The notes under the pieces: model-generated | Seen by the model: the letters and a program-made list of their open reading frames with translations, nothing else | Told to the model about the DNA's origin: nothing | Database searches by the model: none | Shown: positions 1,054-37,336 of the stretch, piece after piece | How positions within the stretch are numbered: the stretch's first letter is position 1 | Layout of the letters: the number at the start of each line of letters is the position of its first letter | Program-made: the position numbers and the translations under genes | IMG/VR virus record: IMGVR_UViG_2645727529_000001 | Location: 1 to 37,623 of that record | Reading direction: 5' to 3' (one strand) | DNA from: a virus | Lineage: Duplodnaviria; Heunggongvirae; Uroviricota; Caudoviricetes | DNA: 37,623 nt

Positions 1054-1241
1054 AAAAAATGCCCTCCAATAGAGAGCATTTTTACTGTATGTATAACCAG
1101 TGTCAATGTATGAAATCCTGCGACCATACATCTCACTGAAGCCATAATGAAGTAGGCTATTCTTTTTGCTATGTGATCATGTAACTTTTGCGGTTAACCT
1201 GTGGCTCATTTTTATTTTAGGCGCAGATATAAAAGCAAAAG

Positions 1242-1433
1242 TTATCGTGAGTTTTTAGTACAGATTTTTTTGGATTTACTAATAGTTCCATCATTGCAAA
1301 CGAATTTGCCATCAGAGGTACAGTGAGAAACACCTCCCTTTTTCCCTGAGCAGGGATAATTTCTAGCATAGGTAGCTAGTGGGTTTAATAACAAAGAACA
1401 TGACAAAACCACAAAAAATACCTTACCAAGCAT
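1242..1433 (-). CDS. Small secreted cysteine-rich, lysine-rich protein (63 aa), function unknown; moron candidate in the immunity operon
   Basis: Strong RBS GGGAGG 5 nt upstream of ATG; N-terminal hydrophobic signal-like segment ([23 protein letters not shown]) then about 40 residues with 4 Cys and many Lys; lies between cI and int on the same strand. Confidence 0.55.
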
Positions 1434-1448
1434 AATTTCCTCCCGGTA

Positions 1449-2018
1449 CTATTTAACATACTTGACTGTTAAACTTATAATTTTACCAATTATTTCAATG
1501 TCTTCTATCTTACATTCAAAGGCTCTGTTTCCACCCTCGACGAAGATTCTTCCACCGGGTAAACGAGTAATGTCACGGATCGTTATTTCGCCATCAATAC
1601 TTATTACCCATTTACCATCACGTATATCATCAAATTCCTTATCACAAATAAATTCAGAATTATTATCTGTGATTACAAAAAGATTCTTGAATGCCGACGG
1701 TAGAAATTCTCTATCGAAAATATAAAAACCGTCTTCACACAAGGCCCCATCAGATAATACATATTTAGCAACTTCCATAGTATTTGTATTACCTGAAGTT
1801 TGCTTTGAACCATGCCCGGTTGTGAGCCAATTAAGCGAGGTGCCTGTTTCAAGGGCGCACTGGATTACCCATTCTGCTGGGAATGAGTCACGCATGTAGC
1901 GTGTGGCGAGTGTACTTTTAGAGATTCCTAAATGATCGCACAACGCCTGTCGAGTCTTGAATCCATAAGCTTCTACCATGCGCTCTATGGCGCCTCGTCC
2001 GCCTTTCTCCAAATTCAT
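1449..2018 (-). CDS. cI: CI-type immunity repressor (186-like)
   Basis: ORF 1449..2024 (GTG at 2024); ATG at 2018 with GGAG RBS; N-terminal HTH-like segment (RQALCDHLGISKSTLATRY); position divergent from the early lytic operon. Confidence 0.8.
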   Translation of the reverse strand: MNLEKGGRGAIERMVEAYGFKTRQALCDHLGISKSTLATRYMRDSFPAEWVIQCALETGTSLNWLTTGHGSKQTSGNTNTMEVAKYVLSDGALCEDGFYIFDREFLPSAFKNLFVITDNNSEFICDKEFDDIRDGKWVISIDGEITIRDITRLPGGRIFVEGGNRAFECKIEDIEIIGKIISLTVKYVK

Positions 2019-2042
2019 GGTCACTCCAAGTGAACTTTTATC

Positions 2043-2071
2043 TTGACGATTTCACCGTGCGATCGTATGTT
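2043..2071 (+). promoter_or_regulatory. Candidate early lytic promoter (pR-like)
   Basis: TTGACG, 17-nt spacer, TATGTT, about 70 nt upstream of the apl-like ATG. Confidence 0.4.
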
Positions 2072-2143
2072 TATGGTGTTCACAAAATACAAACGATCCG
2101 TATTCGTCCTGATTAATCATCATTAAACGAGGAATGTTGCATC

Positions 2144-2347
2144 ATGAGACCTAACATTTCAATCACTCTTACCACGCCTCATGTGACTATTGAACGCTAT
2201 AGCGAGCTGACAGGGCTATCCATCGATACCATCAATGACATGTTGGCTGATGGACGCCTTATCCGTCACCGTCTGCGCAAAGATAAAAAACGCGAAAAAG
2301 TGATGATCAACATAGCAGCAATGACCGTTGATGCGCTTTCAGAATGA
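2144..2347 (+). CDS. apl: Apl/Cox-like small HTH regulator/excisionase, first gene of the early lytic operon
   Basis: 67-aa ORF with HTH-like YSELTGLSIDTINDMLADGRL; synteny opposite cI; length is shorter than the Apl/Cox sizes I recall, so identity is by position and fold only. Confidence 0.55.
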   Translation: MRPNISITLTTPHVTIERYSELTGLSIDTINDMLADGRLIRHRLRKDKKREKVMINIAAMTVDALSE

Positions 2348-2397
2348 AATCTAAACCTTAATTAGTTCGATTCTGAAATACATCAGAGGCATTGACC

Positions 2398-2907
2398 ATG
2401 TTTGATTACCAAGTTTCCAAACATCCACATTTTGATGAAGCCTGTCGTGCATTTGCACTGCGCCACAATCTGGTGCAACTGGCAGAACGTGCAGGCATGA
2501 ATGTGCAGATTCTGCGGAACAAGCTGAACCCAGCTCAGCCTCATTTATTAACCGCACCAGAAATCTGGCTGCTTACCGATCTGACTGAAGATTCAACGCT
2601 GGTAGATGGTTTTCTGGCACAGATTCATTGTCTGCCATGTGTACCGATTAATGAGGTGGCAAAAGAGAAACTGCCACATTACGTCATGAGTGCAACCGCA
2701 GAGATCGGGCGTGTTGCTGCAGGTGCGGTGTCTGGCGATGTAAAAACCTGTGCCGGTCGTCGTGATGCTATCAGCAGCATTAACTCTGTAACACGACTGA
2801 TGGCGCTGGCGGCTGTTTCATTGCAGGCCCGTTTACAGGCTAATCCTGCGATGGCGAGTGCAGTTGATACCGTGACTGGCCTCGGTGCTTCATTTGGTTT
2901 GCTGTGA
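2398..2907 (+). CDS. cII: CII-family phage regulatory protein (186 CII-like)
   Basis: 169 aa from ATG 2398 (RBS AGAGG); synteny after apl; length matches 186 CII as I recall it. Confidence 0.75.
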
Positions 2908-2914
2908 GGTGCTT

Positions 2915-3115
2915 ATGCTGACGAAAGAACCATCATTTGCATCGCTGCTGGTTAAACAAAGCCCGGCAATGCATTACGGCCACGGCTGGATCATGGGGGA
3001 GGATGGTAAACGCTGGCATCCGTGCCGTTCACAAGATGAATTGCTGGCAGAACTATCTACGAAAAAACGGGGGAACAAATGGCTATTGAAGGCACTGCGG
3101 CGACTGTTCCATTAA
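2915..3115 (+). CDS. Hypothetical early-operon protein (66 aa)
   Basis: ATG 2915 after GAGG RBS; sits where the 186 fil/dhr-type small genes lie. Confidence 0.45.
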   Translation: MLTKEPSFASLLVKQSPAMHYGHGWIMGEDGKRWHPCRSQDELLAELSTKKRGNKWLLKALRRLFH

Positions 3116-3420
3116 GCCCCGGTGAACGCCTGAATGGACTTAATCACATTGCGGAGTTAAGGGCGAAAATTTTTGGCCTGAATATTGAGTCAGAGCTTGA
3201 GCGGTTTATTAAAGATATGCGTGATTCACGGGATATTAATAGCGAACAAAATAAACGGGCACTGGCTGCCATATTCTTTATGGCAAAAATTCCAGCTGAA
3301 CGTCATAGCATCAGCATTAATGAGCTGACCACTGACGAAAAGCGGGAGTTGATTAAAGCAATGAATCATTTTCGTGCAGTGGTGAGCTTATTTCCCAGAC
3401 GGCTAACCATGCCGAATTAA
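3079..3420 (+). CDS. Hypothetical early-operon protein (113 aa)
   Basis: ORF with GGGGGA RBS; overlaps the previous gene out of frame; early-operon synteny. Confidence 0.5.
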   Translation: MAIEGTAATVPLSPGERLNGLNHIAELRAKIFGLNIESELERFIKDMRDSRDINSEQNKRALAAIFFMAKIPAERHSISINELTTDEKRELIKAMNHFRAVVSLFPRRLTMPN

Positions 3421-3487
3421 CCAACTAATGAAATTAATGGCGTAAACCCGCCGGGCATCCCTTTATCTAAATTCAGGAGAATTGATT

Positions 3488-3721: not shown

Positions 3722-3948
3722 TGGCTGATGCAATGGATCTCGTACAGCAGCGCGTTGAAGAAGAACGCCAACGCCATATCCGTGCTGCCCGTGCCAAAAC
3801 GCCGGGCGTGTCCCGCGTGCTTTGCATTGATTGTGAAGCGCCAATTCCGCCAGCACGCCGCCGTGCCATTCCGGGTGTGCAGCTTTGCATTACCTGCCAG
3901 GAAATCGCAGAGCTGAAAGGCAAACATTACAACGGAGGTGCTGTATGA
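3721..3948 (+). CDS. TraR/DksA-family C4 zinc-finger protein
   Basis: CxxC...CxxC (CIDCEAPI...CITCQ) in a 75-aa protein; AGGAG RBS; start overlaps the previous stop. Confidence 0.75.
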   Translation: MADAMDLVQQRVEEERQRHIRAARAKTPGVSRVLCIDCEAPIPPARRRAIPGVQLCITCQEIAELKGKHYNGGAV

Positions 3949-4802
3949 GCACCATCCTGAAATGGGCGGGAAATAAAACTGCCATAATGTCCGAACTGAA
4001 AAAACATCTTCCTGCTGGCCCGCGACTGGTTGAACCTTTCGCGGGTTCCTGTGCTGTGATGATGGAGACGGATTATCCCAGCTATCTGGTTGCGGATATT
4101 AATCCTGATTTAATCAACCTCTATAAAAAGGTTGCCGCTGATTGTGAATCGTTTATATCTCGCGCCAGAGTTTTATTTGAGATCGCAAACAGGGAGGTGG
4201 CTTATTACAACATAAGGCAGGAGTTTAATTACTCAACTGAAATTACTGATTTCATGAAAGCGGTATATTTCCTGTATCTCAATCGTCACGGTTACCGTGG
4301 TTTATGTCGCTATAACAAGAGCGGGCATTTCAACATTCCCTACGGTAATTATAAAAATCCGTATTTCCCTGAAAAAGAAATTCGCGCATTTGCAGAAAAG
4401 GCCCAGCGAGCAACGTTTATCTGCGCCAGCTTTGATGAAACGCTGGCGATGTTGAAGGCGGGGGATGTGGTGTATTGCGATCCGCCGTATGACGGTACGT
4501 TTTCCGGCTATCACACTGACGGCTTCACTGAAGATGACCAGTATCACCTGGCATCTGTTCTTGAACATCGGTCATCAGAAGGACATCCGGTCATTGTTTC
4601 TAACAGTGACACATCCCTGATCCGTTCGCTGTATCGCAATTTTACTCACCACTACATCAAGGCAAAACGCAGCATCGGTGTGGCAGCTGGCGAGGGTAAA
4701 TCAGCAACAGAAATCATCGCTGTTTCCGGGCCGCGCTGCTGGGTAGGATTTGATCCTTCGCGTGGCGTGGATTGTTCCGTCGTGTACGGAGTGCGTGCAT
4801 GA
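3945..4802 (+). CDS. dam: DNA adenine methyltransferase (Dam family)
   Basis: N-terminal LKWAGNK AdoMet motif and DPPY motif ([10 protein letters not shown]); ATG 3945 overlaps the TraR-like stop. Confidence 0.85.
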
Positions 4803-7837: not shown

Positions 7838-8127
7838 TAGTTTGGGCAATGAGTGAAATAAGGCGTAAGGCGTAAGGTGGGGGGGCATTTTGATAAATGA
7901 TCGTCCGCTTTGTGCCAGAAGCGAACGTTTCTTCTGCTATCTTTCGTCAATTAACGAATGGCAGACTAATTTGCAACGGATAATCTGAATTTTGTAAGAT
8001 TATGGGTATTCCTATAATATTTACCAATAATAACCTTACAATGTACACTACCTATTGAATTTTCCATAGTTGGCCTTTGGCTCTACTTACCATCTATGTT
8101 TATGTATTTTATCAAAATGGACTAAAA

Positions 8128-10020
8128 ATGCACAATACGTACATCAAAGACTATATAGAATATTACCTTAGCCTTAAAACTGAACCTCAATACGCCATTA
8201 TGCTTAAAGGTGCTTGGGGATCAGGTAAAACTTGGTTCATTGAACGAGTTCTTGAAGAATATAAGCAAAAGCATTCAGAGTTCAAATTTCTTAAAGTGAG
8301 TTTGTATGGCGTCAACTCTATTGAGCAGATTGAAGATGAGTTCTATCGTCAACTTCATCCTATTCTATCAAACAAAGCCCTTATCTTTGGTGCAAATGTA
8401 CTAAAAAATACGCTTAAGGCTACTTTCAAGATCGATTTCAATGGCGATAATAAGTCTGACGTAGATGTCAATGCCAGTGTCCCCACCATTAATCTTAGCG
8501 ACTTTAGCAGAGAACCAGATGGTTTTGTGCTGGTCTTTGATGATATCGAGAGAGCTGGTATAGATTTACCAATCTTATTTGGATATATAAATCACTTTGT
8601 AGAAGTAAACGGATACAAAGCGATCCTGGTTGCCAATGAAGAAGAAATAATCAACAGAGAAAAGCGAATAAATAATGATGATGAGAAATCTAGCAGTGAA
8701 TACATAAGAACAAAAGAAAAGCTTGTAGGTAAAACATTTGAAGTAACGTCAGATTTACCTAGTGCTTGTAATGTTTTCTTGGGCGTAATTAGTAGTTTAC
8801 ACGTTGCTAATATATTTAAAGAAGATATGCAGACCATAGAACACCTCTATGTGTCGGCGAAATATAATAATCTAAGACATTTGAGGCAGTTCTTTCTTGA
8901 TGTACAACGCATCATTTCCCTTTTGGGAGATAAATATGTCAGCAACGACGATTTTATGAAAGTATTTTTCCAGCAGTTATTAATTTTCTCGATGGAGTAC
9001 CGGGGAGGGAACCTTAACTACGAGGATTTCAATTCAATCGGCAATGTAAATTATAGTATGTTTTTAGATAAAGGGCGTACCAAAACTAAGTATGACATGA
9101 TCGTCGAGAAATATTCATCACCTGTATTAACCGAGACGTTACTGGATGGTGCGTACTGGAGAGAGCTAATCTGTGATGGAAAGGTAACGCATGATCTTCT
9201 CGCTCAGCTGGATATTACGCGATTTTTTAGAAGCACCGATGCCCAAGCATGGGAGTATTTGTGGAACTATCGAGAACTTAATGAAACTATGCTTAATGAA
9301 CAGTACGCCATTGCCAAGGATAATCTATTTTCAGGTAAGATCACTTCCTTAGGTGAACTCCTGATGACCGCGAGTATTTTGCTGGCATTGGCGAAAGAAG
9401 GTTTAACCACAGATGCTGTTGATGACATTATAAATGAGACAAAACATCATATAGATATTTATTACAATGGATTAGGACCTGAAGATATACATCAGGAGTA
9501 TGCGCAAAGACATTATAATGAGTTAATGGCATGGCGTGGCTTTGGTTTTCTTGACAGGGATAGCGATGAATTCAAACTCATTATTGAGCATATTAAGATA
9601 GCGCAGAAGAAACGGTTTGATGAATCAATTCCGGAGTTTGCATTGAAGTTCAGCGATGAGTTGCAAAGAGGGAATTTATCGTTTGTATCTGAATTGTGTC
9701 ATTCTAATAATAGGCAGCTAAATCTTCATAACGTGCCTTTTTTACACTTGGTTTCTCCTGAAGTTTTCATTGAAAGCTATAGGAAACTTGACCCAATCAT
9801 CATGAGGAAACTGGCATTTAGCTTGAGGGATCGTTATTCTGATAGGGATGCCAGAACCAGACTGACCGAAGAATACAACTGGTTGATTAGCCTAAAAGAG
9901 ATAGCTGTAGATTTCACTCAAAACGCAGCCAATAACTCCTTTCAGGTTTTTCATGTAAAGTTTTTTATTGACTATGCACTAACTAATGCAATCAAATTAT
10001 TTACTGAGGGAACTGATTAA
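8128..10020 (+). CDS. KAP-family P-loop NTPase (630 aa), cargo gene at the tin/old-equivalent hotspot
   Basis: Walker A GAWGSGKT near the N-terminus, Walker B-like VLVFDDIERAG; strongly AT-rich versus backbone; single gene with its own terminator. Confidence 0.75.
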   Translation: MHNTYIKDYIEYYLSLKTEPQYAIMLKGAWGSGKTWFIERVLEEYKQKHSEFKFLKVSLYGVNSIEQIEDEFYRQLHPILSNKALIFGANVLKNTLKATFKIDFNGDNKSDVDVNASVPTINLSDFSREPDGFVLVFDDIERAGIDLPILFGYINHFVEVNGYKAILVANEEEIINREKRINNDDEKSSSEYIRTKEKLVGKTFEVTSDLPSACNVFLGVISSLHVANIFKEDMQTIEHLYVSAKYNNLRHLRQFFLDVQRIISLLGDKYVSNDDFMKVFFQQLLIFSMEYRGGNLNYEDFNSIGNVNYSMFLDKGRTKTKYDMIVEKYSSPVLTETLLDGAYWRELICDGKVTHDLLAQLDITRFFRSTDAQAWEYLWNYRELNETMLNEQYAIAKDNLFSGKITSLGELLMTASILLALAKEGLTTDAVDDIINETKHHIDIYYNGLGPEDIHQEYAQRHYNELMAWRGFGFLDRDSDEFKLIIEHIKIAQKKRFDESIPEFALKFSDELQRGNLSFVSELCHSNNRQLNLHNVPFLHLVSPEVFIESYRKLDPIIMRKLAFSLRDRYSDRDARTRLTEEYNWLISLKEIAVDFTQNAANNSFQVFHVKFFIDYALTNAIKLFTEGTD

Positions 10021-10544: not shown

Positions 10545-11216
10545 ATGGCTTTCAGAGCGGAAGAAGCAGCAGCATCGAATTTCGAAAATGCTTACAGATA
10601 TCTAGTTCCACAAGGTTCAAATCAGGAGATGCGTTCGAAAGTTAGGGCGAAGCTCAAAGAAATTGTTGAAGAATGTGGGCCAGTAGTGGATGGGTATCCA
10701 GCATGGCATCCTTTTTTGCTGGAAAGAGATAAAGCTATTTGGGCGCCTATGACTCCCAATAATACTCCTAGCTTTAAATACCTGGACCACACGGTCTATT
10801 TCAGGAACGGCATTCTTACCTGTCCTTATGGTCATGGGGTTGATGAATTTATAGCTGGTATAAAACGTCTAAAGCACACGGATGCCCATTTCTCTATTGA
10901 GAAGATTGATGACGTTGTGCTTTATAATGACAACGCCGTCCCGTTGTTAATAAAATGCCATTGGCTTATTTCGGAAGATATGGAAGAGGATGGCACCATT
11001 CCAGCAAAAGCAGCAATTGGATTGATGCTTGAAAGCGAGGTTCCTAACTGGCGGCATGCAGTTTATTGTGAAAATTGGGAAGATATGCGCGGGCAGTTGA
11101 TGGGATATCCGCACGGTGCCAGATCATCTCTATTTGTTAATCAGCAGACAGGACAGAAAATGAAAAACTTCTGGAATCAGCTGATTAAGACCGGAATTCT
11201 TGGGGAAGAGCGATAA
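10545..11216 (+). CDS. Hypothetical protein (223 aa), cargo gene between the cos-like site and the portal gene
   Basis: Clean ORF, lower GC than backbone, followed by a strong terminator; no family recognised by eye. Confidence 0.6.
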   Translation: MAFRAEEAAASNFENAYRYLVPQGSNQEMRSKVRAKLKEIVEECGPVVDGYPAWHPFLLERDKAIWAPMTPNNTPSFKYLDHTVYFRNGILTCPYGHGVDEFIAGIKRLKHTDAHFSIEKIDDVVLYNDNAVPLLIKCHWLISEDMEEDGTIPAKAAIGLMLESEVPNWRHAVYCENWEDMRGQLMGYPHGARSSLFVNQQTGQKMKNFWNQLIKTGILGEER

Positions 11217-12318: not shown

Positions 12319-14084
12319 CAAAAAATCTCCACAATATTGCTGGTATTGGCGGACTCGCCCTGCAGCGGTTCGTTAAACAGTGCGTGCATTGTTGCCCAGG
12401 CCAGATCGGCATGGCTGGCTTCTTCGCTGCGGCTGGCTTCATAGGTTGGGCGGTTGCCGCTGGCGGTGGTGGCGCGACGGATTGCCATAAATGACTGCGC
12501 TATGTCGGTGTGTCCGGCGTCAAACTCCAGACGACGGTGACTGATAATGTCGTAGGCCTTGAGTACCAGGGCGTTTTTAACGTTGGGGTTGTAGACAAAC
12601 TCCCGGACGGCTGGAAAAAACGCTTTCACGTTCTCGTAAACCCCGTGACCGACACCCGTCGAGTCGATGCCGATATATGTCACGTTGTACTGTTCGGTCA
12701 GTTTTTTGATGGCGTCCGCCTGGGCGCGGAAGTCCATCCCGCGCCACTGGTGGCGCTCAAGAATACGGAACTTACCGCCCGGCACGGCTGGCGGTGCCAC
12801 CACCACGCATCCGGCGCTGTCGCCGTTCTGCGTACCTTTTGCCGGGTCATAACCGATCCACACTTCGCGCCACCCAAACGGGCGAAGGGCCAGTGCATGA
12901 AAGTCGGTCCAGACTTCCCAACTGTCCACCATGCACGCCTGCAGCTCGCTGAGCGGAAACACGGACGCGAGATCGTCCACAAACTCGCACATCAGCAGGT
13001 TCTGGTATTCGTCCGGGCTGTACTCCATGCGCAACTGGTCAAGGTCGAACAGGTTGCAGCCGCCGCGCACCGCATCTTCCACGGTGACTATCTGGCGGTA
13101 TTGCCCGTCTGCGCACAGCAGGCCGGGGGCCAGATTGCTGTGGGACAGGTCGATGTCCACCTTGTCAGCTTTGTTGCGTCCACGGTTGAACAGCGCACCG
13201 GACCAGAACGGATAAGCACTGTGGGTCAGGCTGGATGGCGTGGAAAAATAGGTTTGTCGCCATTTCTTGTGAATAGCCATCCCGGAAGCCACTTTGCGCA
13301 GCTCCTGGAATTTCGGTATCCAGAAATATTCATCCAGATACAGGTTGCCGTGATAACTCTGGGCCGTGCGGGCATTGGTGCCGAGGAAGTAAAGCGTGGC
13401 TCCGTTAGGAAGCACCATCGGATCGCCTTTTAGCTCCACCTCGACTTCTTTGGCGAAGTCGATGATGTATTGTTTAAAGACGTGGGCCTGAGCCTTACTG
13501 GCAGAAAGGAAAATCTGGTTGCGTCCGGTAAGCAGGGCGTCAATCAGGGCTTCACGGGCAAAATAGAAGGTCGCGCCGATCTGGCGAGACTTCAGCAGGT
13601 TGCGGATGCGGTTGGTTTTTCCGGCTTCCCACCAGTGGCGCTGGTAGTTGAACATGGAGGAATGGAAGATTTCTTCCAGCTTCTCAATCTGCTCATCGGT
13701 GAAAACATTCTTTTCCGGCTGACGGCGTGGGCCTTTATTGCGGTTGGCGACGTTAGGGTTTAAGTCGGCTTCGTTGCCGCCATTGTTAAACTTGCCGATC
13801 CGCGCGTGGCGCTCAGACTGGCGCGCCAGCAGGTCAATCTCTTTGAAATCTTTCCCTTCTTTGTGCTCCTTCATGATGAGCTGGCAGTAGCGTGCTGCGG
13901 TGGTGAGCTGCATCTGGTCCAGCGGCCCATAGTCACCCCACTTGTCGCGTTTTTTCCAGCTGTGAACGGTTGCAACTTTCTCGCCCAGCATTTCAGCAAT
14001 GCGGGCTACGCGGTATCCCTGAAAGTACAGCAGCATGGCCTGCCGACGGGGATCGAGATCTGCGGGTGTCAGTGTGGTGTTCAT
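12318..14084 (-). CDS. P: Terminase large (ATPase) subunit gpP
   Basis: 588 aa, P2 P-like; synteny. Confidence 0.9.
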   Translation of the reverse strand: MNTTLTPADLDPRRQAMLLYFQGYRVARIAEMLGEKVATVHSWKKRDKWGDYGPLDQMQLTTAARYCQLIMKEHKEGKDFKEIDLLARQSERHARIGKFNNGGNEADLNPNVANRNKGPRRQPEKNVFTDEQIEKLEEIFHSSMFNYQRHWWEAGKTNRIRNLLKSRQIGATFYFAREALIDALLTGRNQIFLSASKAQAHVFKQYIIDFAKEVEVELKGDPMVLPNGATLYFLGTNARTAQSYHGNLYLDEYFWIPKFQELRKVASGMAIHKKWRQTYFSTPSSLTHSAYPFWSGALFNRGRNKADKVDIDLSHSNLAPGLLCADGQYRQIVTVEDAVRGGCNLFDLDQLRMEYSPDEYQNLLMCEFVDDLASVFPLSELQACMVDSWEVWTDFHALALRPFGWREVWIGYDPAKGTQNGDSAGCVVVAPPAVPGGKFRILERHQWRGMDFRAQADAIKKLTEQYNVTYIGIDSTGVGHGVYENVKAFFPAVREFVYNPNVKNALVLKAYDIISHRRLEFDAGHTDIAQSFMAIRRATTASGNRPTYEASRSEEASHADLAWATMHALFNEPLQGESANTSNIVEIF

Positions 14085-14130
14085 AGCACAAACCTACAGC
14101 CTTGAATGAAGGCTTTCCCCGCCTGCGGTT

Positions 14131-14148
14131 TGTGTGGTTGTCGGTACA
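14131..14148. promoter_or_regulatory. Ogr/Delta-type late-promoter activator site (TGT-N12-ACA) in the P/O divergent region
   Basis: TGTgtggttgtcggtACA, 79 nt upstream of the O start. Confidence 0.55.
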
Positions 14149-18825: not shown

Positions 18826-19219
18826 AGCGGTGCCTTATGTCCGCAATAACCCGGACAAACTGCATCTGTTTGTGGATAACGGTTCGCTGGTTGCCAAGGG
18901 GGCCAGCTCCATGTCATGGGAGTACCGTTACACCCTGAACGCGGTGATTGAGGATTTCAGCGGCGACCAGAATCTGCTGATGGCCCCGGTTTTGCTGTGG
19001 CTGCGGGATAACCAGCCCGATGCCATCAATAATCCGGCGTTACGGGAAAAGTTATTCACCTTTGAGGTGGATATTCTGCGCAACGATGTCTGTGATATCA
19101 GCCTTAACCTGCAACTGACGGAGCGTGTGCTGGTCAGCACTGACGGCAGTGTGTCGAGCGTTGAAGCTGTGGCAGAACCCGATGAACCTGAAGAAATGTG
19201 GGCGGTGAAACGTGGCTGA
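18788..19219 (+). CDS. R: Tail completion protein gpR
   Basis: GTG start at 18788 after AGGAG; P2 R-like. Confidence 0.8.
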   Translation: MNKPQSLRHALNKAVPYVRNNPDKLHLFVDNGSLVAKGASSMSWEYRYTLNAVIEDFSGDQNLLMAPVLLWLRDNQPDAINNPALREKLFTFEVDILRNDVCDISLNLQLTERVLVSTDGSVSSVEAVAEPDEPEEMWAVKRG

Positions 19220-19655
19220 ACTGCAGAAGGTGGACGACTGGCTGAGTGCTTTGCTGGCGAATCTGGAGCCAGCCGCAAGAAGCCGCATGATGCGCCAGCT
19301 GGCGCAGGAACTGCGCCGGACACAGCAGCAGAACATCAGGATGCAGCGCAATCCAGATGGCAGCAGTTATGAACCGCGCAGGGCAACAGCACGCAGCAAA
19401 AAGGGGCGCATCAAACGTCAGATGTTTACAAAGCTGCGCACCTCTAAATACCTTCAAACTACCGCCAGCGCCGATTCTGCCAGCGTGCAGTTTGAAGGTA
19501 AGGTGCAGCGCATTGCACGCGTTCACCATTACGGCCTGCGTGATCGCGTCAGTCGTCATAGTTTTAAAGTGAAATATGCGCAACGGCGTCTTCTAGGCGT
19601 TAATAAAGACATAGAAATTTGGGTTCGAAACACACTGATGCACTGGCTTGTTTAG
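19212..19655 (+). CDS. S: Tail completion protein gpS
   Basis: 147 aa, GTG start overlapping the R stop; P2 S-like. Confidence 0.8.
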   Translation: MAELQKVDDWLSALLANLEPAARSRMMRQLAQELRRTQQQNIRMQRNPDGSSYEPRRATARSKKGRIKRQMFTKLRTSKYLQTTASADSASVQFEGKVQRIARVHHYGLRDRVSRHSFKVKYAQRRLLGVNKDIEIWVRNTLMHWLV

Positions 19656-19680
19656 TGCTTCAGTGTGTTAAAACAGAAGA

Positions 19681-21432
19681 CTATTGGTTGAATATAAAGC
19701 TGATAATATTTTCAGGAGTGAGCTCTATGTTTTTTTTATTAAGTTTTTGAATGTACATTTTATATTTCATTTCAACGTTTCGGAAGCCTTGCGCAACAGA
19801 AAGTATTTCTACAGGATGAGATGAAAGCTTTATTAAGGAGTTAATGACTGCATCTAGGTAGATGTGAGCATGTTCAACTAAAACATTTGTTTTTGATGGG
19901 GTTTTTCCAGTGTGAACTATCAAGTTTCTAGTTCTATATATTCTCCTAATTTGCCAGTTGATTCTTTCTGCATGATTTTTAAGTGCCTGATACATAGTAT
20001 CAGTTGAGGAAATTAAATTGCTAATATATTCAAATCTCTCTTTCAATAACGGAAATTGTGATAGTTCTATCTTAAACTGATTGATGCTAGGGGCATGTTC
20101 TTGCGAAGCAACAAGAATTACAAATGATTTGGCTGCATCGCTATCTCCAATTAGTCTTAGAAGTGACATGGTTCGAGGATGATTCCATCGTTGTAAGTCT
20201 TTTATAAGATTCCTTACTAGGTCTTCAATATAATTCAGGTTTAAAAATGGTGTTAATGAATTAACGATATGTTCTATCGTGGATTGTTCTTCTTTTTTTG
20301 ATTCGTCGGGGATGAGTGATTCAATAGCAATCCATAAATTTAAAAGCTGATTTTCTACAGCATTTGTCTGTAGTGCCATTGAATGTAATTGTACACTTCT
20401 TATGAATTTATTGAAAGAATCCTTGCGCATTCTGAAATTATTCATGAATTGTTCGAGTCTTCTGCTTGCGTGTTCCTGAACCAGATCCTTGCAGCGGTGC
20501 ATTGGGTTTATGCTGCTTCTTATATTGATTTTTTCACCATTTTCACTAACTACAATGTTCTCTGCAGACCATGATGCTTCTTGCTTATGATGATAGAGAG
20601 AAAGCAAAGTTGATGCGAGCTTTAAGTTTCTTTCAGCTACCCTTCTAGCCGTGAATGGATCAAGTGCTTTAACATGCTTAACTAAAATAGTTCGTTGTTC
20701 ATGATTATCGAAGAAATCTGTTTCATTAATATTTTCGGGGGTTTCAAGAACAACCTCAATTTCTAATTGTGATAAGCATGGAGTAATATAACTAAAAGAT
20801 TTTTCAGCATTGAAATAAACTGAATATTCTTGTGTCTCTGAGGGGATGTTCTCTAGGAATGTAATAATCTCTTCATTTGAACTGATCTCTCGTTCTCTTT
20901 GGAAGAAATGTTTTTTTAGACTTTCCATCAAATATTCTTGACTTAATCCTTTTGATATTAGATGGGTAATCAACAGTCTTGTAAACTTTCGAATTTTATT
21001 TGGGTTGTATTCTGAAGTTATTGTAGAGCAAAGTTCACTGATGAGTTTGCTTTCATAATTACCAACATTAAGTTGAACTCTCAGTAACTCAAGAGTTATT
21101 TTTAGATTTTTATTTCCTAACTGATTGTTTTGGAGTTGATCTAAAAATGAACCTAAAGGGTTTTTTAGAAGACTGATTGCGATGTCATCATTCTTAATAT
21201 TTTTAGTTAATTCGTCAATGACGTGGGATATATGTGCGGGGCTTATGTTGCCTTTTTCTATATCATCGATTGTTGATATTGCTTCTATACATAAACTTGG
21301 AGTGTTCATTATAGAAGGTTTATATGTACTATGGGTGTAATCAAAGAGAAGTTCCTCCATTAACTCGGTGAAATAAATAAGCGCAGTGCATTGTTCAATA
21401 TGATTCCAGTTGTGTAGTCTTCTAAATTTCAT
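19681..21432 (-). CDS. Large AT-rich cargo protein with C-terminal HEPN-like Rx4H motif; candidate abortive-infection or defence RNase
   Basis: ORF 19681..21552 (TTG start); preferred ATG at 21432 (MKFRRL...) leaves the P_V promoter region free; motif RIYRTRNLIVHTG near the C-terminus; convergent with S and divergent from V at the P2 orf30 position. Confidence 0.6.
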   Translation of the reverse strand: MKFRRLHNWNHIEQCTALIYFTELMEELLFDYTHSTYKPSIMNTPSLCIEAISTIDDIEKGNISPAHISHVIDELTKNIKNDDIAISLLKNPLGSFLDQLQNNQLGNKNLKITLELLRVQLNVGNYESKLISELCSTITSEYNPNKIRKFTRLLITHLISKGLSQEYLMESLKKHFFQREREISSNEEIITFLENIPSETQEYSVYFNAEKSFSYITPCLSQLEIEVVLETPENINETDFFDNHEQRTILVKHVKALDPFTARRVAERNLKLASTLLSLYHHKQEASWSAENIVVSENGEKINIRSSINPMHRCKDLVQEHASRRLEQFMNNFRMRKDSFNKFIRSVQLHSMALQTNAVENQLLNLWIAIESLIPDESKKEEQSTIEHIVNSLTPFLNLNYIEDLVRNLIKDLQRWNHPRTMSLLRLIGDSDAAKSFVILVASQEHAPSINQFKIELSQFPLLKERFEYISNLISSTDTMYQALKNHAERINWQIRRIYRTRNLIVHTGKTPSKTNVLVEHAHIYLDAVINSLIKLSSHPVEILSVAQGFRNVEMKYKMYIQKLNKKNIELTPENIISFIFNQ

Positions 21433-21476
21433 ATTAATACCTTGTTTTGTGAAGCTTGAATTTACCTTTAGCGCAT

Positions 21477-21498
21477 TGTTTGTTGCTTCATACAAACA
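21477..21498. promoter_or_regulatory. Ogr/Delta-type late-promoter site(s) for P_V (two overlapping TGT-N12-ACA dyads)
   Basis: TGT 21477-21479 with ACA 21492-21494, and TGT 21481-21483 with ACA 21496-21498; 43-64 nt upstream of the V start. Confidence 0.55.
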
Positions 21499-21540
21499 TG
21501 GTTTGTTTGTGATCTCAAGTGTTTGATTAAGAATTTGAGA

Positions 21541-22119
21541 ATGAACGTACAACTCACGGAAATCATGCGCCTTATCACCAATCTGATCCGCACAGGGGTA
21601 GTCACCGAAGTGGACCGGGAAAACTGGCTTTGCAGGGTGAAAACGGGCGAGCTTGAAACCAACTGGATCAGCTGGCTGACGCTACGTGCCGGAAATGCCC
21701 GGACATGGTGGCGACCATCGGAAGGTGAGCAGGTGGTGCTGCTGAGTCTGGGAGGCAATCTGGAAACCGCCTTTGCGTTGCCCGCTGTCTATTCGAATCA
21801 GTTCGCGCCACCTTCGACGTCGGCGGACGCCTGCGTGACAGAACATCCTGACGGTGGCTGGTTTGAATACGAACCCGCCACCGGGCGCTGGTATGTCAGG
21901 GGCATCAAATCCATGGTCATTGAGGCTGCCGACAACATCACCCTGAAAACCAGTGAGTTTGTGCTGGAGGCTGACCGCACGCGTATTAACAGCGAAGTAG
22001 TGATCAATGGTGGTGTTACCCAGGGCGGCGGTGCAATGAGTTCTAACGGAATTGTGGTTGATGCACATCAGCATACTGGCGTCCTGAAAGGCGGCGACAC
22101 AACCGGAGGCCCGGTATGA
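21541..22119 (+). CDS. V: Baseplate spike protein gpV
   Basis: ATG 21541; P2 V-like. Confidence 0.85.
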   Translation: MNVQLTEIMRLITNLIRTGVVTEVDRENWLCRVKTGELETNWISWLTLRAGNARTWWRPSEGEQVVLLSLGGNLETAFALPAVYSNQFAPPSTSADACVTEHPDGGWFEYEPATGRWYVRGIKSMVIEAADNITLKTSEFVLEADRTRINSEVVINGGVTQGGGAMSSNGIVVDAHQHTGVLKGGDTTGGPV

Positions 22120-23968: not shown

Positions 23969-25473
23969 GCACAAAATTTTATACCCTGCTGACGGATATT
24001 GGCGCGGCGAAACTTGCCAGCGCCGCCGCGCTCGGTGTGCCGCTAAAAATTACCCATATGGCGGTGGGCGATGGTGGCGGAACATTGCCGACGCCGGACG
24101 CAAAGCAGAGTGCACTGGTAAATGAGAAACGTCGGGCTGCGCTGAATATGCTCTATATCGACCCACAGAACAGCAGCCAGATTATTGCTGAACAGGTGAT
24201 CCCTGAAAACGAGGGCGGTTGGTGGATACGTGAAGTGGGCCTGTTTGATGAATCCGGGGCATTGATTGCCGTGGGAAACTGCCCGGAAAGCTATAAGCCG
24301 CAACTGGCTGAAGGTAGCGGACGCACTCAGACCGTGCGCATGGTGCTGATTACCAGCAGCACGGACAATATCACCCTGAAAATCGACCCTGCTGTAGTGC
24401 TGGCAACCCGCAAGTATGTGGATGACAAGGCACTGGAGCTGAAGGTGTACGCGGATGATCAGATGGCAAAACATCTTGCCGCACCGGACCCGCATTCACA
24501 GTATGCACCCAAAGAAAGTCCGACGTTTACCGGGACACCCAAAGCGCCAACGCCAGCAGCAGGGAATAACACCACGCAGATTGCGACCACCGCGTTTGTT
24601 CAGGCGGCTCTGACGGCTCTTATTAATGGTGCGCCAGCCACGCTGGACACGCTGAAAGAAATAGCCGCAGCCATTAACAATGATCCGAAATTCAGTACCA
24701 CCATTAACAATGCACTGGCACTGAAAGCGCCGCTGTCGAGTCCGGCACTCACCGGAACGCCAACCGCACCTACTGCGGCACAGTCGGTCAACAATACACA
24801 GATTGCCACCACGGCATTTGTGAAATCGGCGATTGCGGCAATGGTGGGTTCTGCACCTGCGGCACTGGATACACTCAACGAACTGGCGGCGGCACTGGGG
24901 AATGACCCGAACTTTGCCACGACAATGCTTAATGCACTGGCAGGTAAACAACCGCTGGACAATACGCTGACTAATTTGAGTGGAAAGGATGTAGCTGGTC
25001 TTCTCACATACCTTGGTTTGGGAGAAGGCTCTGCATTACCTGTTGGTGTCCCTGTTCCGTGGCCTTCAGCCACTCCGCCAACAGGCTGGCTGAAATGCAA
25101 TGGTGCGGCTTTTTCTGCTGAAGAATACCCGGAACTGGCAAAAGTTTACCCGACAAATAAATTGCCTGATTTACGTGGTGAGTTTATTCGCGGCTGGGAT
25201 GACGGAAGAGGAATTGATACTAACCGTAGCTTGCTTTCATCACAGGGCGATGCCATTCGAAATATAATTGGTGCATTAGTGGATGTCAGGTTTAATACCT
25301 ATCCTTCTGATTCTGGTGCTTTTACAACCAGCGTCATCGGAGATGCTTCATCTGATTCAACTAAAGGTGGTTATGCAAAGCGAGTAACATTTGATGCTTC
25401 CAGAGTTGTTCCAACTGCAAACGAAAACCGTCCGCGTAATATTGCATTTAACTATATCGTGAGGGCAGCCTGA
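23965..25473 (+). CDS. H: Tail fibre protein gpH (current orientation of the variable C-terminus)
   Basis: 502 aa; conserved P2 H N-terminus (MSTKFYTLLTDIG...); C-terminal 150 aa lie inside the invertible segment. Confidence 0.85.
   Translation: MSTKFYTLLTDIGAAKLASAAALGVPLKITHMAVGDGGGTLPTPDAKQSALVNEKRRAALNMLYIDPQNSSQIIAEQVIPENEGGWWIREVGLFDESGALIAVGNCPESYKPQLAEGSGRTQTVRMVLITSSTDNITLKIDPAVVLATRKYVDDKALELKVYADDQMAKHLAAPDPHSQYAPKESPTFTGTPKAPTPAAGNNTTQIATTAFVQAALTALINGAPATLDTLKEIAAAINNDPKFSTTINNALALKAPLSSPALTGTPTAPTAAQSVNNTQIATTAFVKSAIAAMVGSAPAALDTLNELAAALGNDPNFATTMLNALAGKQPLDNTLTNLSGKDVAGLLTYLGLGEGSALPVGVPVPWPSATPPTGWLKCNGAAFSAEEYPELAKVYPTNKLPDLRGEFIRGWDDGRGIDTNRSLLSSQGDAIRNIIGALVDVRFNTYPSDSGAFTTSVIGDASSDSTKGGYAKRVTFDASRVVPTANENRPRNIAFNYIVRAA
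24517..24960 (+). repeat. Tandem duplication of about 70 codons inside the tail fibre gene
   Basis: SPTFTGTPKAPT...NNTTQIATTAFV...DTLKEIAAAINNDPKF... repeated as SPALTGTPTAPT...NNTQIATTAFV...DTLNELAAALGNDPNF... Confidence 0.5.
25001..25026. repeat. hix/gix-like 26-bp inversion crossover site (left)
   Basis: TTCTCACATACCTTGGTTTGGGAGAA, similar to the Hin/Gin sites as I recall them; inner half TTGGTTTGGGAGAA is inverted at 26832-26845. Confidence 0.65.
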
Positions 25474-26075
25474 TGCATAAAGCAATATTAAATAGTGAGC
25501 TTATTGCAACAAAGGCAGGGGATGTTACCGTTTATAACTACGATGGTGAAACACGGGAATATATTTCCACGTCAACTGAATATCTTGCTGTTGGTGTCGG
25601 TATTCCGGCATGTTCCTGTCTTGATGCACCTGGCATACATAAGGTTGGTTATGCAATCTGTCGTTCTGTGAATTTAAATTCATGGGAATATGTGCCAGAT
25701 CATCGCGGTGAAATCGTCTATAGCACCGAAACAGGAGAATCGAAAGAAATCACAGCTCCGGGTGATTATCCTGAAAATACAACCACTATCGCCCCGTTAA
25801 CGCCATACGATGAATGGAATGGTGAGAAATGGGTGACAGATACCGAGGCACAGCACGGCGCAGCAGTAGATGCAGCAGAAGCACAGCGCCCGTTGCTGAT
25901 TGATACTGCAATGGCCTCCATCAGTCTGATTCAACTGAAATTACAGGCCGGACGGAAGCTGACGCAGGCAGAAACAATCCGCCTTAACGCTGTGCTGGAT
26001 TACATTGACGCGGTGACGGCAACAGATACCAGCACAGCGCCGGATGTCATCTGGCCTGAACTGCCGGAGGCGTAG
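25473..26075 (+). CDS. G: Tail fibre assembly chaperone gpG (expressed orientation)
   Basis: 200 aa; follows H with ATGA overlap; G-like conserved C-terminus. Confidence 0.8.
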   Translation: MHKAILNSELIATKAGDVTVYNYDGETREYISTSTEYLAVGVGIPACSCLDAPGIHKVGYAICRSVNLNSWEYVPDHRGEIVYSTETGESKEITAPGDYPENTTTIAPLTPYDEWNGEKWVTDTEAQHGAAVDAAEAQRPLLIDTAMASISLIQLKLQAGRKLTQAETIRLNAVLDYIDAVTATDTSTAPDVIWPELPEA

Positions 26076-26508
26076 GCCATTCAATATCTGGCGCACCGGA
26101 AGTATCGATCAGCTCCAGTGCGTCCAGATAATCCAGCCACAAATTATATTGTGCCAGTTCCTCACCTTTCAGACGACCGATAGCTGCTTTACCAGGCCAT
26201 TGCTTACCGTTCATGTATTCGTTGGCATGGTCAATTCTCGACTTTTTCTCTGAGTCAGCCGCAGCAAGTTGTTCTTTATGCGTAGGTGACGGAAGATCTA
26301 CCCAGCAAGGCAACCCATCATCACCAATGCCACGCATTTTACCCTCAGGAGCGTTTCCCATGAAAACCAGTGCATCTTCAGCATTTATATTGATGCCGTC
26401 TGACGGCCATGTGCCAGCAGTTAAATAATCATATTTCAGTGCCACAAGATAAAAAGCATTTTCCGTCGGGCTGAATACATAGTCGACCATTAATATCCCA
26501 CTCCCCAT
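26047..26508 (-). CDS. Alternative tail fibre assembly chaperone (G'), inverted cassette
   Basis: 153 aa; C-terminus (...DALELIDTSGAPDIEWP) parallels G (...DAVTATDTSTAPDVIWP); opposite strand inside the invertible segment. Confidence 0.7.
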   Translation of the reverse strand: MGSGILMVDYVFSPTENAFYLVALKYDYLTAGTWPSDGININAEDALVFMGNAPEGKMRGIGDDGLPCWVDLPSPTHKEQLAAADSEKKSRIDHANEYMNGKQWPGKAAIGRLKGEELAQYNLWLDYLDALELIDTSGAPDIEWPTPPAVQAR

Positions 26509-26846
26509 ACTGCCACTGTTGAATTAGATTTCGTGTATGCGCAAGCGGCTTTGAATTTGACCCGGTCAACAATCGCTGCGCTAACAAAAGGGGCTCCATT
26601 AGTCGCGTAGATCACAGAATTGACCAGCGAAGGATTGATGGAAAGGCAAGCATTAGGAAAGGCAACCGGCCATGAGTCATCAACAACGACCATATTACCG
26701 TCGGTAGATTGCGGCACTGATAGCGTCTTCCACTGAAGCAATGCTATTCGTTGTACTCCACCAATTAATACTGGAATAGTGATGTTACCTGCACTGCTGG
26801 CTAATGCTGTCGCAGCAGGCATTTTCGCTGCTTCTCCCAAACCAAC
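26490..26846 (-). CDS. Alternative tail fibre C-terminal cassette (Hv'), silent in this orientation
   Basis: Minus-strand ORF whose VGLGE codons coincide with the right hix-like site, mirroring LGLGE of H at the left site; would fuse to the H constant part after inversion. Confidence 0.6.
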   Translation of the reverse strand, partial: VGLGEAAKMPAATALASSAGNITIPVLIGGVQRIALLQWKTLSVPQSTDGNMVVVDDSWPVAFPNACLSINPSLVNSVIYATNGAPFVSAAIVDRVKFKAACAYTKSNSTVAVWGVGY

Positions 26847-26857
26847 GTTTATGAAAA
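26832..26857. repeat. hix/gix-like 26-bp inversion crossover site (right)
   Basis: TTCTCCCAAACCAACGTTTATGAAAA; inner 14 bp are the exact inverted repeat of 25013-25026. Confidence 0.65.
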
Positions 26858-26906
26858 TGCAGAGATAACGGCTAACTGGCATCATCTCCGGTTTTTATTC
26901 AGGGGG

Positions 26907-27479
26907 ATGATCATGCTTATTGGCTATGTACGCGTGTCAACAAATGACCAGAACACCGATTTGCAACGCAATGCACTGAACTGTGCGGGATGTGAGCGGA
27001 TTTTTGAGGATAAAATCAGTGGCACCAAGTCCGACAGACCGGGGCTGAAAAAGCTGCTCAGGACACTATCGGCAGGAGACACGCTGGTTGTCTGGAAGCT
27101 GGACAGACTGGGGCGCAGTATGCGGCATCTTGTTACGCTGATAGAAGAGCTGCGCCAGCGTGGCGTGAATTTCCGAAGCCTGACTGACAGTATTGATACC
27201 AGCACCCCAATGGGCCGTTTCTTTTTTCATGTCATGGGTGCCCTGGCTGAAATGGAACGCGAACTGATAGTTGAACGTACCAGGGCGGGGCTGGCTGCAG
27301 CTCGTGCTAAAGGCAGAGTAGGTGGACGCCGTCCTAAGTTGACCAGCGAACAGTGGGCACAGATTGGGCGTTTACTCGAGGCCGGAGAATCAAGACAGCG
27401 TATTGCACTGATTTTTGATGTAGGCGTTTCTACCATTTATCGAAAATTTCCGGCAAATAAGAACAATAAATCTCCCTGA
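26907..27479 (+). CDS. Serine DNA invertase (Hin/Gin/Pin/Cin family)
   Basis: N-terminal IGYVRVSTNDQNTDLQ resolvase catalytic motif and C-terminal HTH; AGGGGG RBS favours the ATG at 26913. Confidence 0.9.
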   Translation: MIMLIGYVRVSTNDQNTDLQRNALNCAGCERIFEDKISGTKSDRPGLKKLLRTLSAGDTLVVWKLDRLGRSMRHLVTLIEELRQRGVNFRSLTDSIDTSTPMGRFFFHVMGALAEMERELIVERTRAGLAAARAKGRVGGRRPKLTSEQWAQIGRLLEAGESRQRIALIFDVGVSTIYRKFPANKNNKSP

Positions 27480-27527: not shown

Positions 27528-27545
27528 TGTGTGAATAACGGTACA
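27528..27545. promoter_or_regulatory. Ogr/Delta-type late-promoter site for P_F (TGT-N12-ACA)
   Basis: TGTgtgaataacggtACA, 77 nt upstream of the FI start. Confidence 0.55.
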
Positions 27546-35003: not shown

Positions 35004-36689
35004 TTATCCTAATCCTGGCCATACCATGACGATGATTGTCCCTGCCAGCGTCAGCAGGACGTTGGCGATTGCGTAGGTGCCCGCATAGCCCAGCGCAGGG
35101 ATGTTACTGCGAGCTGTATCACTGATGATCTCCATTGCCGGCGCGCAGGTGCGTGCGCCCATCATTGCGCCGAACAACAGTGCGCGGTTCATTCGCAATA
35201 CATAAGCACCGAACAAGAAACAGATAACCACGGGCACAAGACTGACAATTAATCCGGCAATCAACATCTGACCGCCAATCGCGCCCAGGCCGTTATTAAT
35301 ACCGCTACCGGCGCTCAGACCAACGCCTGCCATAAACACCATCAAGCCGAACTCTTTCACCATGCTTAATGCACCTTGCGGAATGTAACCGAAGGTCGGG
35401 TGGTTAGCACGCATAAAGCCCAGCATAATTCCGGCGAATAACAACCCGGCAGCGTTCCCCATGCCGAAACTGAATGTGCTGAACTGGAAGGTGATCATCC
35501 CGATCATCAGCCCAATAACAAAGAAGGCGCAAAATGCCAGCAGGTCAGTGACCTGGCTGTGAATCGAGATAAAGCCGATGCGATCGGCGATGGTTTTTAC
35601 GCGACGGGCATCACCGCTGACTTGTAAAACGTCACCTTTGTTAAGCACGACGTTGTCATCTATCGGCATCTCAATCTGGCTACGAATGACGCGGTTAAGG
35701 AAGCAACCGTGATCGGTCAACTTCAGTTGTGCGAGACGTTTACCTACAGCGTTATGGTTTTTAACGACCACTTCTTCAGTGACGATACGCATGTCGAGAA
35801 GGTCACGATCGAAAACTTCTTTACCGTTACGGAAGCTGGGATCGAGTCGGGCATGGGCGTCGGGATAGCCTACCAACGCTATTTCATCGCCCATTTGTAG
35901 CACGGCATCACCGTCTGGATTTGCCAGAATCCCGTTACGTCGAATACGTTCAATGTAGCAGCCGGTTTGTCGATAAATACCCAGTTCACGCAGATTTTTG
36001 CCGTCGGTCCAGGCCACCAGCTCCGGGCCGACGCGATAGGCGCGGATCACCGGTAAATAAACCTTACGGTTGGCATCAGTGTCCAGGCCACGTTCGCGGG
36101 CGATTTGCTGGGCGCTGGTCTGTAAGTCCTGATGCTGCAATTTCGGCAAGTAACGCGCACCAACAATCAAACTCACCAGACCGATTAAATAGGTTAAGGC
36201 ATACCCGAGGCTCAGATTATCCAGTGCCAGTGAGAGCTGCCTGCTTTCCATGCCGGAATGACGCAGTGTATCGCCAGCACCGACCAGAACCGGTGTCGAC
36301 GTCATAGAGCCTGCTAACATACCGGCCGTCAGGCCAATATCCCAGCCAAACAGCTTACCTAACCCTAAGGCGATCACCAGCGCACTGCCAACCATCACCA
36401 GTGCTAACATTAGGTAATTTTTCCCATCGCGAAAAAAAATGGAAAAAAAGTTCGGTCCGGCTTCGACCCCGACGCAGAAAATAAACAGCATAAAGCCAAG
36501 ATTAAGCGCATCGGTGTTAATGCTGAAATGTTGTTGGCCTAATAACAGCGATACGACTAAAACGCCAATGGAATTACCCAGTTGGATCGAACCAAGTCGT
36601 AACTTTCCGAGACATAGCCCAAGCGCGAGGACCACAAATAATAACAGAATGTAATTCCCATTTAACAATTCGGCGACGTTTATATTCAC
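35004..36689 (-). CDS. ybjL: Putative transport protein YbjL (AAE-family transporter)
   Basis: 561-aa multi-TM protein recognised as E. coli YbjL; neighbours ybjM and grxA as in E. coli. Confidence 0.85.
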
Positions 36690-36958
36690 GGAGGCTAACT
36701 TCTTGTTTACTAGTAAGCTGTTGAAAGAAATGGTAATTTACGATAATGTTTTTTACCAGAATTCAGGGCGCAGATTCATTCAGCGCACCTAAACGATAGT
36801 AAAGTAACAATATATTTTACTAGTGTAATCACATTAGGTATCAACGGCTATATGAATTGCGTTGGCCTATATTAGCATGGAATGCGAAGCGGCTTTATCT
36901 TACTGAACGCCACACTGGCGAAAAATGTGTTCGATAGACGCAGTGTCAGGAGGAACGA

Positions 36959-37336
36959 GTGAAACATAAACAACGTTGGGCGGGGGCAATCTGCTGTTTT
37001 GTCCTCTTCATTGTGGTGTGCCTTTTTCTGGCGACGCACATGAAAGGCGCTTTTCGGGCTGCCGGGCATCCTGAAATCGGCTTGCTATTTTTCATTCTTC
37101 CTGGAGCAGTGGCCAGCTTCTTTTCACAGCGTAGAGAAGTCCTGAAACCTCTGTTTGGCGCAATGCTGGCGGCACCCTGTTCGATGCTCATTATGCGGCT
37201 GTTTTTTTCACCGACGCGCTCATTCTGGCAAGAGCTGGCATGGTTACTAAGCGCGGTGTTCTGGTGTGCGCTGGGGGCACTGTGTTTCTTATTTATCAGT
37301 AGTTTGTTTAAACCACAGCACAGAAAAAATCAGTAA
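36959..37336 (+). CDS. ybjM: Inner membrane protein YbjM
   Basis: 125-aa hydrophobic protein; conserved position between ybjL and grxA. Confidence 0.75.
   Translation: MKHKQRWAGAICCFVLFIVVCLFLATHMKGAFRAAGHPEIGLLFFILPGAVASFFSQRREVLKPLFGAMLAAPCSMLIMRLFFSPTRSFWQELAWLLSAVFWCALGALCFLFISSLFKPQHRKNQ

Follow-up and report, generated by a model that had tools for sequence, protein, structure and literature searches.

The stretch of DNA analyzed here (37,623 nucleotides, IMG/VR virus record IMGVR_UViG_2645727529_000001; hereafter the window) consists of a P2-like prophage, from the integrase to ogr, and of ybjL/ybjM-like host genes at its right end. Between the tail genes S and V it carries a single minus-strand gene which, judging from its sequence and at a probability of roughly 93%, is apeA in the variant named Ec2ApeA, i.e., a single-protein abortive-infection system that the prophage would carry as cargo at its S/V (orf30) site. 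The protein and its mechanism are already known from cryo-electron microscopy (cryo-EM) structures at 2.4-3.6 Å and from published function. A preliminary description of the window had proposed a single-gene abortive-infection system built on a HEPN RNase at this position, and this was borne out by the identity of the product to Ec2ApeA, for which defense, loss of defense in the R502A mutant, toxicity and cleavage of transfer RNA (tRNA) have all been published. The same description had recognized no named family of this length and architecture, a statement that did not stand, as the protein belongs to ApeA (PADLOC PDLC02157).

The product of 583 amino acids (aa) was queried against the Protein Data Bank (PDB) with phmmer and matched chain A of entry 9HXI, i.e., Ec2ApeA from E. 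coli 2-156-04_S4_C1, with 100% identity across residues 1-583, there being no difference between the two at the protein level. Entries 9HXB, 9HXD and 9HXE-H, which are point mutants, were near-identical to the window protein. The remaining PDB matches were all to members of the same family, namely Ec3ApeA over the full length (E 8.7e-134), Ec1ApeA over residues 20-534 (E 1.7e-12) and Ec4ApeA (E 7.5e-11). Likewise, the PADLOC profile for ApeA matched residues 60-574 of the longest open reading frame (ORF; 623 aa) across profile positions 21-553 of 601 (E 2.1e-12). Homology thus covers the whole protein, including both the N-terminal region and the HEPN domain. A name for the protein came from two sources only, the PADLOC scan and the PDB sequence search; scans against Pfam, NCBIfam and PHROG found no matching model and returned noise (DUF7625, E 0.022; MauJ, E 0.04; phrog_5512, E 0.026), which was below threshold and taken as chance. 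No Pfam HEPN model matched the protein in the Pfam scan, and an Rfam scan of 19300-21900 at E values up to 1 gave nothing.

All 30 published functional residues that we checked are present in the translation of the window, and the published numbering holds when residues are counted from the ATG at 21432. These comprise the catalytic residues R502, N503 and H507, the residues of the allosteric pocket (T36, Y37, S40, I41, M42, E74, R148, R152, Y401, Y469, H487, R490, Q494, H521, and Y525), those of the ring interface (R551, E554, Q99, Q548, R336, E115, F96, L116, and I112) and those of the regulatory loop (R334, M335, and K337). The translation contains RRIYRTRNLIVHTG, in which R502 and H507 are spaced as R-x4-H, and the motif R502-N-L-I-V-H507 (19912-19929, minus strand) provides the C-terminal Rx4-6H signature of the family. 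The preliminary description had read this arrangement as a HEPN RNase active site, and it is indeed the catalytic motif of the identical Ec2ApeA, in which R502A kills defense.

The limits of the domains, all encoded on the minus strand, were taken from the Ec2ApeA cryo-EM paper (bioRxiv 10.64898/2026.01.26.701840). The N-terminal helical domain (residues 1-198; 20839-21432), described there as a catenin-like helical fragment, gives T36, Y37, S40, I41, M42, E74, R148, and R152 to the ligand pocket, and is followed by the Mid domain, which spans residues 199-309 (20506-20838) and is identical in sequence. The regulatory loop spans residues 331-341 (20410-20442; R334, R336, and K337), and the split HEPN_ApeA domain spans residues 335-583 (19684-20430) and provides Y401, Y469, H487, R490, Q494, H521, and Y525 of the pocket together with R551 of the ring interface. 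Because a solved structure exists, the HEPN fold and the dimer were taken from the cryo-EM of the identical sequence; the pocket and ring-interface residues are found in the translation, and their arrangement in space comes from the same literature.

The published work on Ec2ApeA, a 2026 preprint to which the PDB codes are tied (bioRxiv 10.64898/2026.01.26.701840), describes a system that protects E. coli from phages that include members of Vequintavirus, Justusliebigvirus and Guernseyvirinae; Bas27 and RB69 are sensitive to it. Protection was seen at low but not at high multiplicity of infection (MOI), which is the abortive pattern, and was abolished in the R502A mutant. According to the same source, HEPN domains dimerize to form a composite R502/H507 RNase site, and five dimers assemble into a decameric ring whose active sites face a channel of approximately the size of a tRNA. 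The ligands are 5'-phosphorylated deoxydinucleotides with a 3' G (pdNG), which bind in an allosteric pocket that lies remote from the active site, between the N-terminal domain and the HEPN domain; dpCG was seen bound in the cryo-EM map. Defense was lost in the pocket mutants Q494Y, R490A, H487A, Y401F, and Y37F and in the ring-breaking mutant R551E; ligand binding rearranges the loop 331-341, and R334A and R336A impair defense. In these experiments pdNG switched on the cleavage of tRNA anticodon loops, with tRNAs for Gln, Tyr, Val, and Gly as targets in vitro. Overexpression was toxic, and the background toxicity was eased by a co-expressed dinucleotide-specific DNase (diDNase).

Taken together, these data suggest how the gene would act in a lysogen. 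As its authors propose for Ec2ApeA, an infecting phage would degrade the host DNA and thereby release pdNG. Binding of pdNG in the pocket would then shift the loop 331-341 and trigger cleavage of tRNA anticodon loops, after which translation would halt and no phage would emerge from the infected cell.

The gene lies within an island that differs sharply in composition from its surroundings, the GC content being 0.31-0.36 over 19600-21600 versus 0.55-0.61 in both flanks, with values of 0.331 for the apeA coding sequence and 0.28 for its third codon positions (GC3). On the left it is flanked by gpS (virion morphogenesis/tail completion; 19212-19655, plus strand; PF05069, E 3.6e-39) and on the right by gpV (baseplate spike; 21541-22119, plus strand; PF04717, E 6e-18, and PF18946 Apex, in agreement with the RefSeq annotation of an identical locus). 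This agrees with the AT-rich minus-strand ORF between gpS and gpV that had been noted beforehand. No co-transcribed partner is present, apeA being the sole minus-strand gene between the plus-strand S and V, and the other nine loci inspected were all alike in this respect. In the Klebsiella phages KP12 and 4LV2017 and in E. coli CP019275, similarity to the region is confined to its S and V ends. Since these relatives hold S and V approximately 68 bp apart, the AT-rich segment of approximately 1.9 kb is an insertion or replacement, and the proposal of horizontal acquisition agrees with both this gap and the 33% GC of the island.

The minus-strand ORF 19681-21552 is the only one in the island and was listed with 623 aa from a TTG codon; counted from the ATG at 21432, its product has 583 aa. 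The shorter form is favored, and the coding sequence would accordingly occupy 19681-21432 (583 aa plus the stop codon at 19681-19683), as given by the PDB search, PADLOC, and gene calls elsewhere. The longer starts cross the activator box of the late promoter P_V, a likely Shine-Dalgarno sequence (AAGG, 21440-21443, minus strand; read from the sequence) lies 7 nt 5' of the ATG, and both the published functional protein and the gene calls in nine of nine other assemblies begin at this codon. As the V gene starts with the ATG at 21541, the TTG at 21552 falls inside V, and a protein of 623 aa, an alternative raised in the preliminary description, is unlikely; this start was rejected because it crosses both the V start codon and the P_V box. 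The RefSeq/PGAP record (WP_187439706.1; 20082-21896 in comparison locus L002) labels the gene "hypothetical protein" and gives it 604 aa from a TTG that corresponds to 21495, i.e., 21 codons upstream of the published functional start. This start was also rejected, as it runs over the P_V box at 21477-21494.

Among 5426 complete E. coli genomes, 11 carry the whole apeA gene at 99.8-100% nucleotide identity, and in every one it occupies the S/V position; NCTC9008 and SC516 are examples of strains that carry this prophage. The exact 583-aa protein occurs in 174 index blocks of public assemblies, and all nine of the places that were read show the same P2-like layout. With the protein as tblastn query, no ApeA homologue was found in a set of 50,697 deposited phage records. 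Plasmids hold distant relatives only (19-24% identity among the matches listed, all below 60%), annotated as "hypothetical protein". The right end of the window (35004-37336) is host DNA that encodes a YbjL-like transporter (Asp-Al_Ex and TrkA_C) and YbjM. In strain 22AR0118 the apeA region is 100% identical from the end of S to the start of V, and the ogr end of its P2-like prophage adjoins a truncated ypjA. From these different neighbors, prophages with apeA cargo appear to reside at more than one chromosomal site.

Phage P2 carries orf30 at the same S/V site and in the same minus-strand orientation, upstream of the pV activator box. The preliminary description had placed the gene at the P2 orf30 moron site, which is right as regards site and orientation, but the cargo itself is unrelated: P2 Orf30 (NP_046770.1) is a protein of 261 aa, and homology to it was rejected (best BLASTP E 1.3). 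The other P2 moron/defense sites that enter this comparison are old, tin, the gpA-gpQ hotspot, and the late/tail-gene hotspot. Papers on P2/P4 hotspots report that P2-like phages carry defense cargo, including within late or tail genes; ApeA is absent from their text and from their searchable supplements, and the Ec2ApeA paper (bioRxiv 10.64898/2026.01.26.701840) makes no mention of prophages.

An Ogr-type activator box (TGT-N12-ACA) of P_V was found by motif scan at 21477-21494 (plus strand), centered at -55.5 from the V ATG, with an overlapping second copy at 21481-21498. The pV activator site annotated in P2 is likewise centered at -55.5 from the annotated transcription start site of the V operon, which coincides with the V ATG, and in the empty-site relative CP019275 a perfect TGT-N12-ACA dyad can be read from the alignment at the same offset. 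The motif occurs ten times in the window, five of these at expected late-promoter regions, with boxes in the divergent region between P and O (14073-14090 and 14131-14148), at V (21477-21498; starts at 21477 and 21481), and upstream of FI (27528-27545). The start codons of apeA and V are separated by 108 bp, and S and apeA are convergent with 25 bp (19656-19680) between their stop codons. The expectation that the gene would be divergent from an Ogr-dependent P_V and convergent with S therefore holds. On the basis of this layout, expression of apeA in the lysogen is plausible, and we infer that it would proceed from the 108-bp region between apeA and V.

Several points weigh against reading the gene as a working defense system of the prophage. 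The mechanism rests on a preprint in which the link from phage nuclease to pdNG in infected cells is only proposed and in which the route from the pocket signal to the catalytic center is unsettled; in that work, moreover, expression of Ec2ApeA was driven throughout by a T7 or Ec1 promoter and in no case by the native upstream region or from within a prophage (bioRxiv 10.64898/2026.01.26.701840). A strict sigma-70 scan of the apeA-V intergenic region found nothing upstream of apeA, and a relaxed scan yielded a single candidate at 21459-21486 on the minus strand (-35 GCAACA at 21486-21481, a 16-nt spacer, and -10 TAAATT at 21464-21459), which is weak (7/12 matches), is not evidence of function, and overlaps the P_V box. 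Finally, no hairpin terminator was detected between S and apeA (fold z +0.6 and -0.4), whereas P2 has a strong hairpin between S and orf30 (-26.8 kcal/mol, z -5.9); late transcription of the O operon may run into apeA as antisense.

The lack of a good sigma-70 consensus upstream of the gene, the missing terminator, and the heterologous promoters of the published constructs could also be taken to mean that apeA is silent or near-silent cargo, i.e., a functional coding sequence that has no effective promoter or is suppressed by convergent late transcription and therefore confers no defense on the lysogen. We consider this unlikely. The ORF is intact and almost invariant in the complete genomes that carry it, the exact protein recurs widely among public assemblies, and weak expression is what would be expected of a protein whose overexpression is toxic. 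In addition, AT-rich upstream DNA often carries non-consensus promoters. The same features allow a further reading in which expression of apeA is coupled to the state of the prophage, being on in the lysogen and shut off during prophage late expression by Ogr occupancy together with convergent transcription of the O operon. This reading follows from the short spacing between the apeA and V start codons, the overlap of the sole promoter-like site with the P_V box, and the absence of an S/apeA terminator such as that of P2, and we regard it as doubtful; if true, it would mean that the prophage is spared its own suicide nuclease.

Ec1ApeA, the founding member (E. coli NCTC8008, WP_000706972.1), was described in a large defense-system screen. 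It shares with the window protein the organization as a single protein of approximately 600 aa in which a helical N-terminal region precedes the C-terminal HEPN domain with its Rx4-6H motif, the decameric ring, the cleavage of tRNA anticodon loops, and a conserved allosteric pocket. However, sequence similarity between the two is distant, as the E value given above indicates, and the catalytic motif is RNKITH in Ec1ApeA versus RNLIVH here. The pockets also differ: E74, R490, S40, and H487 of Ec2ApeA correspond to D75, D509, K41, and T506 of Ec1ApeA, respectively. Deoxydinucleotides do not activate Ec1ApeA, and its phage spectrum is different and extends to single-stranded RNA (ssRNA) phages. 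The nearest distinct relative with a solved structure is Ec3ApeA (PDB 9HXJ), homologous over its full length and likewise with Zn at the dimer interface, which differs in forming a dodecamer rather than a decamer and in giving only moderate protection.

The activity of Ec1ApeA against ssRNA phages raises the possibility that the protein of the window acts mainly by cutting the RNA of invading phages without killing the cell. A second preprint reports that Ec1ApeA cleaves the genomic RNA of Qubevirus and protects without cell death, and the pocket and HEPN site are common to the ApeA family. On the other hand, protection by Ec2ApeA was restricted to low MOI and accompanied by tRNA cleavage in vitro, the pockets and activators of Ec1ApeA and Ec2ApeA differ, and three of the four other testable homologues in the study of Ec1ApeA and RNA phages gave no protection against RNA phages (Ec2ApeA was not among the proteins tested). 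We therefore find this mode of action improbable for the window protein, for which abortive infection through tRNA cleavage is the preferred reading.

Outside the family, the nearest structural relative of the HEPN core is HepT (PDB 5YEP and 7AE8), a minimal HEPN protein with helices H1-H4 and catalytic residues on H3. HepT differs in being a small toxin controlled by its antitoxin MntA, whereas ApeA lacks a partner gene, is extended by large N-terminal and Mid domains, carries insertions within its HEPN domain, and is regulated through a small-molecule pocket. No co-oriented neighbor is present at the locus and hence no adjacent co-oriented nucleotidyltransferase antitoxin gene of the HepT/MntA type. 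HEPN toxins are nonetheless known in toxin-antitoxin pairs such as HepT/MntA, and the gene sits among tail genes and is toxic when overexpressed. A role in place of anti-phage defense, whether as a toxin for addiction or prophage maintenance or in phage structure or regulation, is nevertheless highly improbable and already largely refuted, given that S and V lie on the other strand, that the protein matched no phage family of PHROG or Pfam above noise, that related phages lacking the gene keep S and V adjacent, and that anti-phage activity has been directly shown for the identical protein.

Functionally, abortive infection by Ec2ApeA resembles two other groups of RNases. With PrrC, likewise an RNase of the HEPN type, it shares the cutting of tRNA anticodon loops in abortive defense, and with the HEPN RNases Csm6 and Csx1 it shares activation by a nucleotide ligand. 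Pfam and NCBIfam scans detected no P-loop or ABC domain in the window protein, and therefore no N-terminal ABC-type ATPase of the PrrC/RloC kind, and the Pfam scan detected no CARF domain. The activator is also of another nature: Ec2ApeA responds to what is proposed to be a DNA breakdown product, as against a dedicated second messenger, or a restriction enzyme partner being released, in PrrC/RloC and Csm6/Csx1. In its mode of action the protein resembles PrrC-type anticodon nucleases and ligand-gated HEPN RNases (Csm6 and Csx1) while standing outside those families.

The prophage contains further features of potential interest. The gpA-gpQ hotspot contains a second AT-rich island (GC 0.35-0.39), in which 8077-10020 (plus strand) encodes a P-loop NTPase of the KAP family (647 aa). 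Its matches are to PDC-S49, a candidate defense family of PADLOC (E 4.7e-161), and to KAP_NTPase of Pfam (E 1.9e-21); an adjoining ORF of 223 aa (10545-11216, plus strand) has no family match. The prophage would thus hold two defense-type cargos at two sites, the one in the gpA-gpQ hotspot being a candidate. A resolvase-type invertase (PF00239; 26907-27479) lies beside opposed tail-fiber-assembly genes within 25473-27479, and the length of the tail-fiber H gene varies between 468 and 519 aa among otherwise identical prophages (loci L004-L008, positions 1-3468); the segment 25473-27479 resembles a host-range segment that can be inverted and is seen here in differing states. Upstream of the replication gene, within the early region, 3885-4802 (plus strand) encodes a D12-class DNA adenine methyltransferase (PF02086, E 1.2e-76), an orphan methylase that possibly has an anti-restriction function.

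As a discovery the finding carries limited weight, since the exact protein already has cryo-EM structures and a published mechanism, and its value is practical, residing in the RefSeq label, the start codon, and the genomic context. The natural home of Ec2ApeA would be the S/V (orf30) site of a P2-like prophage, a context that is not in the Ec2ApeA paper. A P2-like phage may be able to carry apeA safely since such a phage would leave the host DNA undegraded. The prophage home of Ec2ApeA is relevant both to the spread of the system and to the way in which a suicide RNase is tolerated by a temperate phage.

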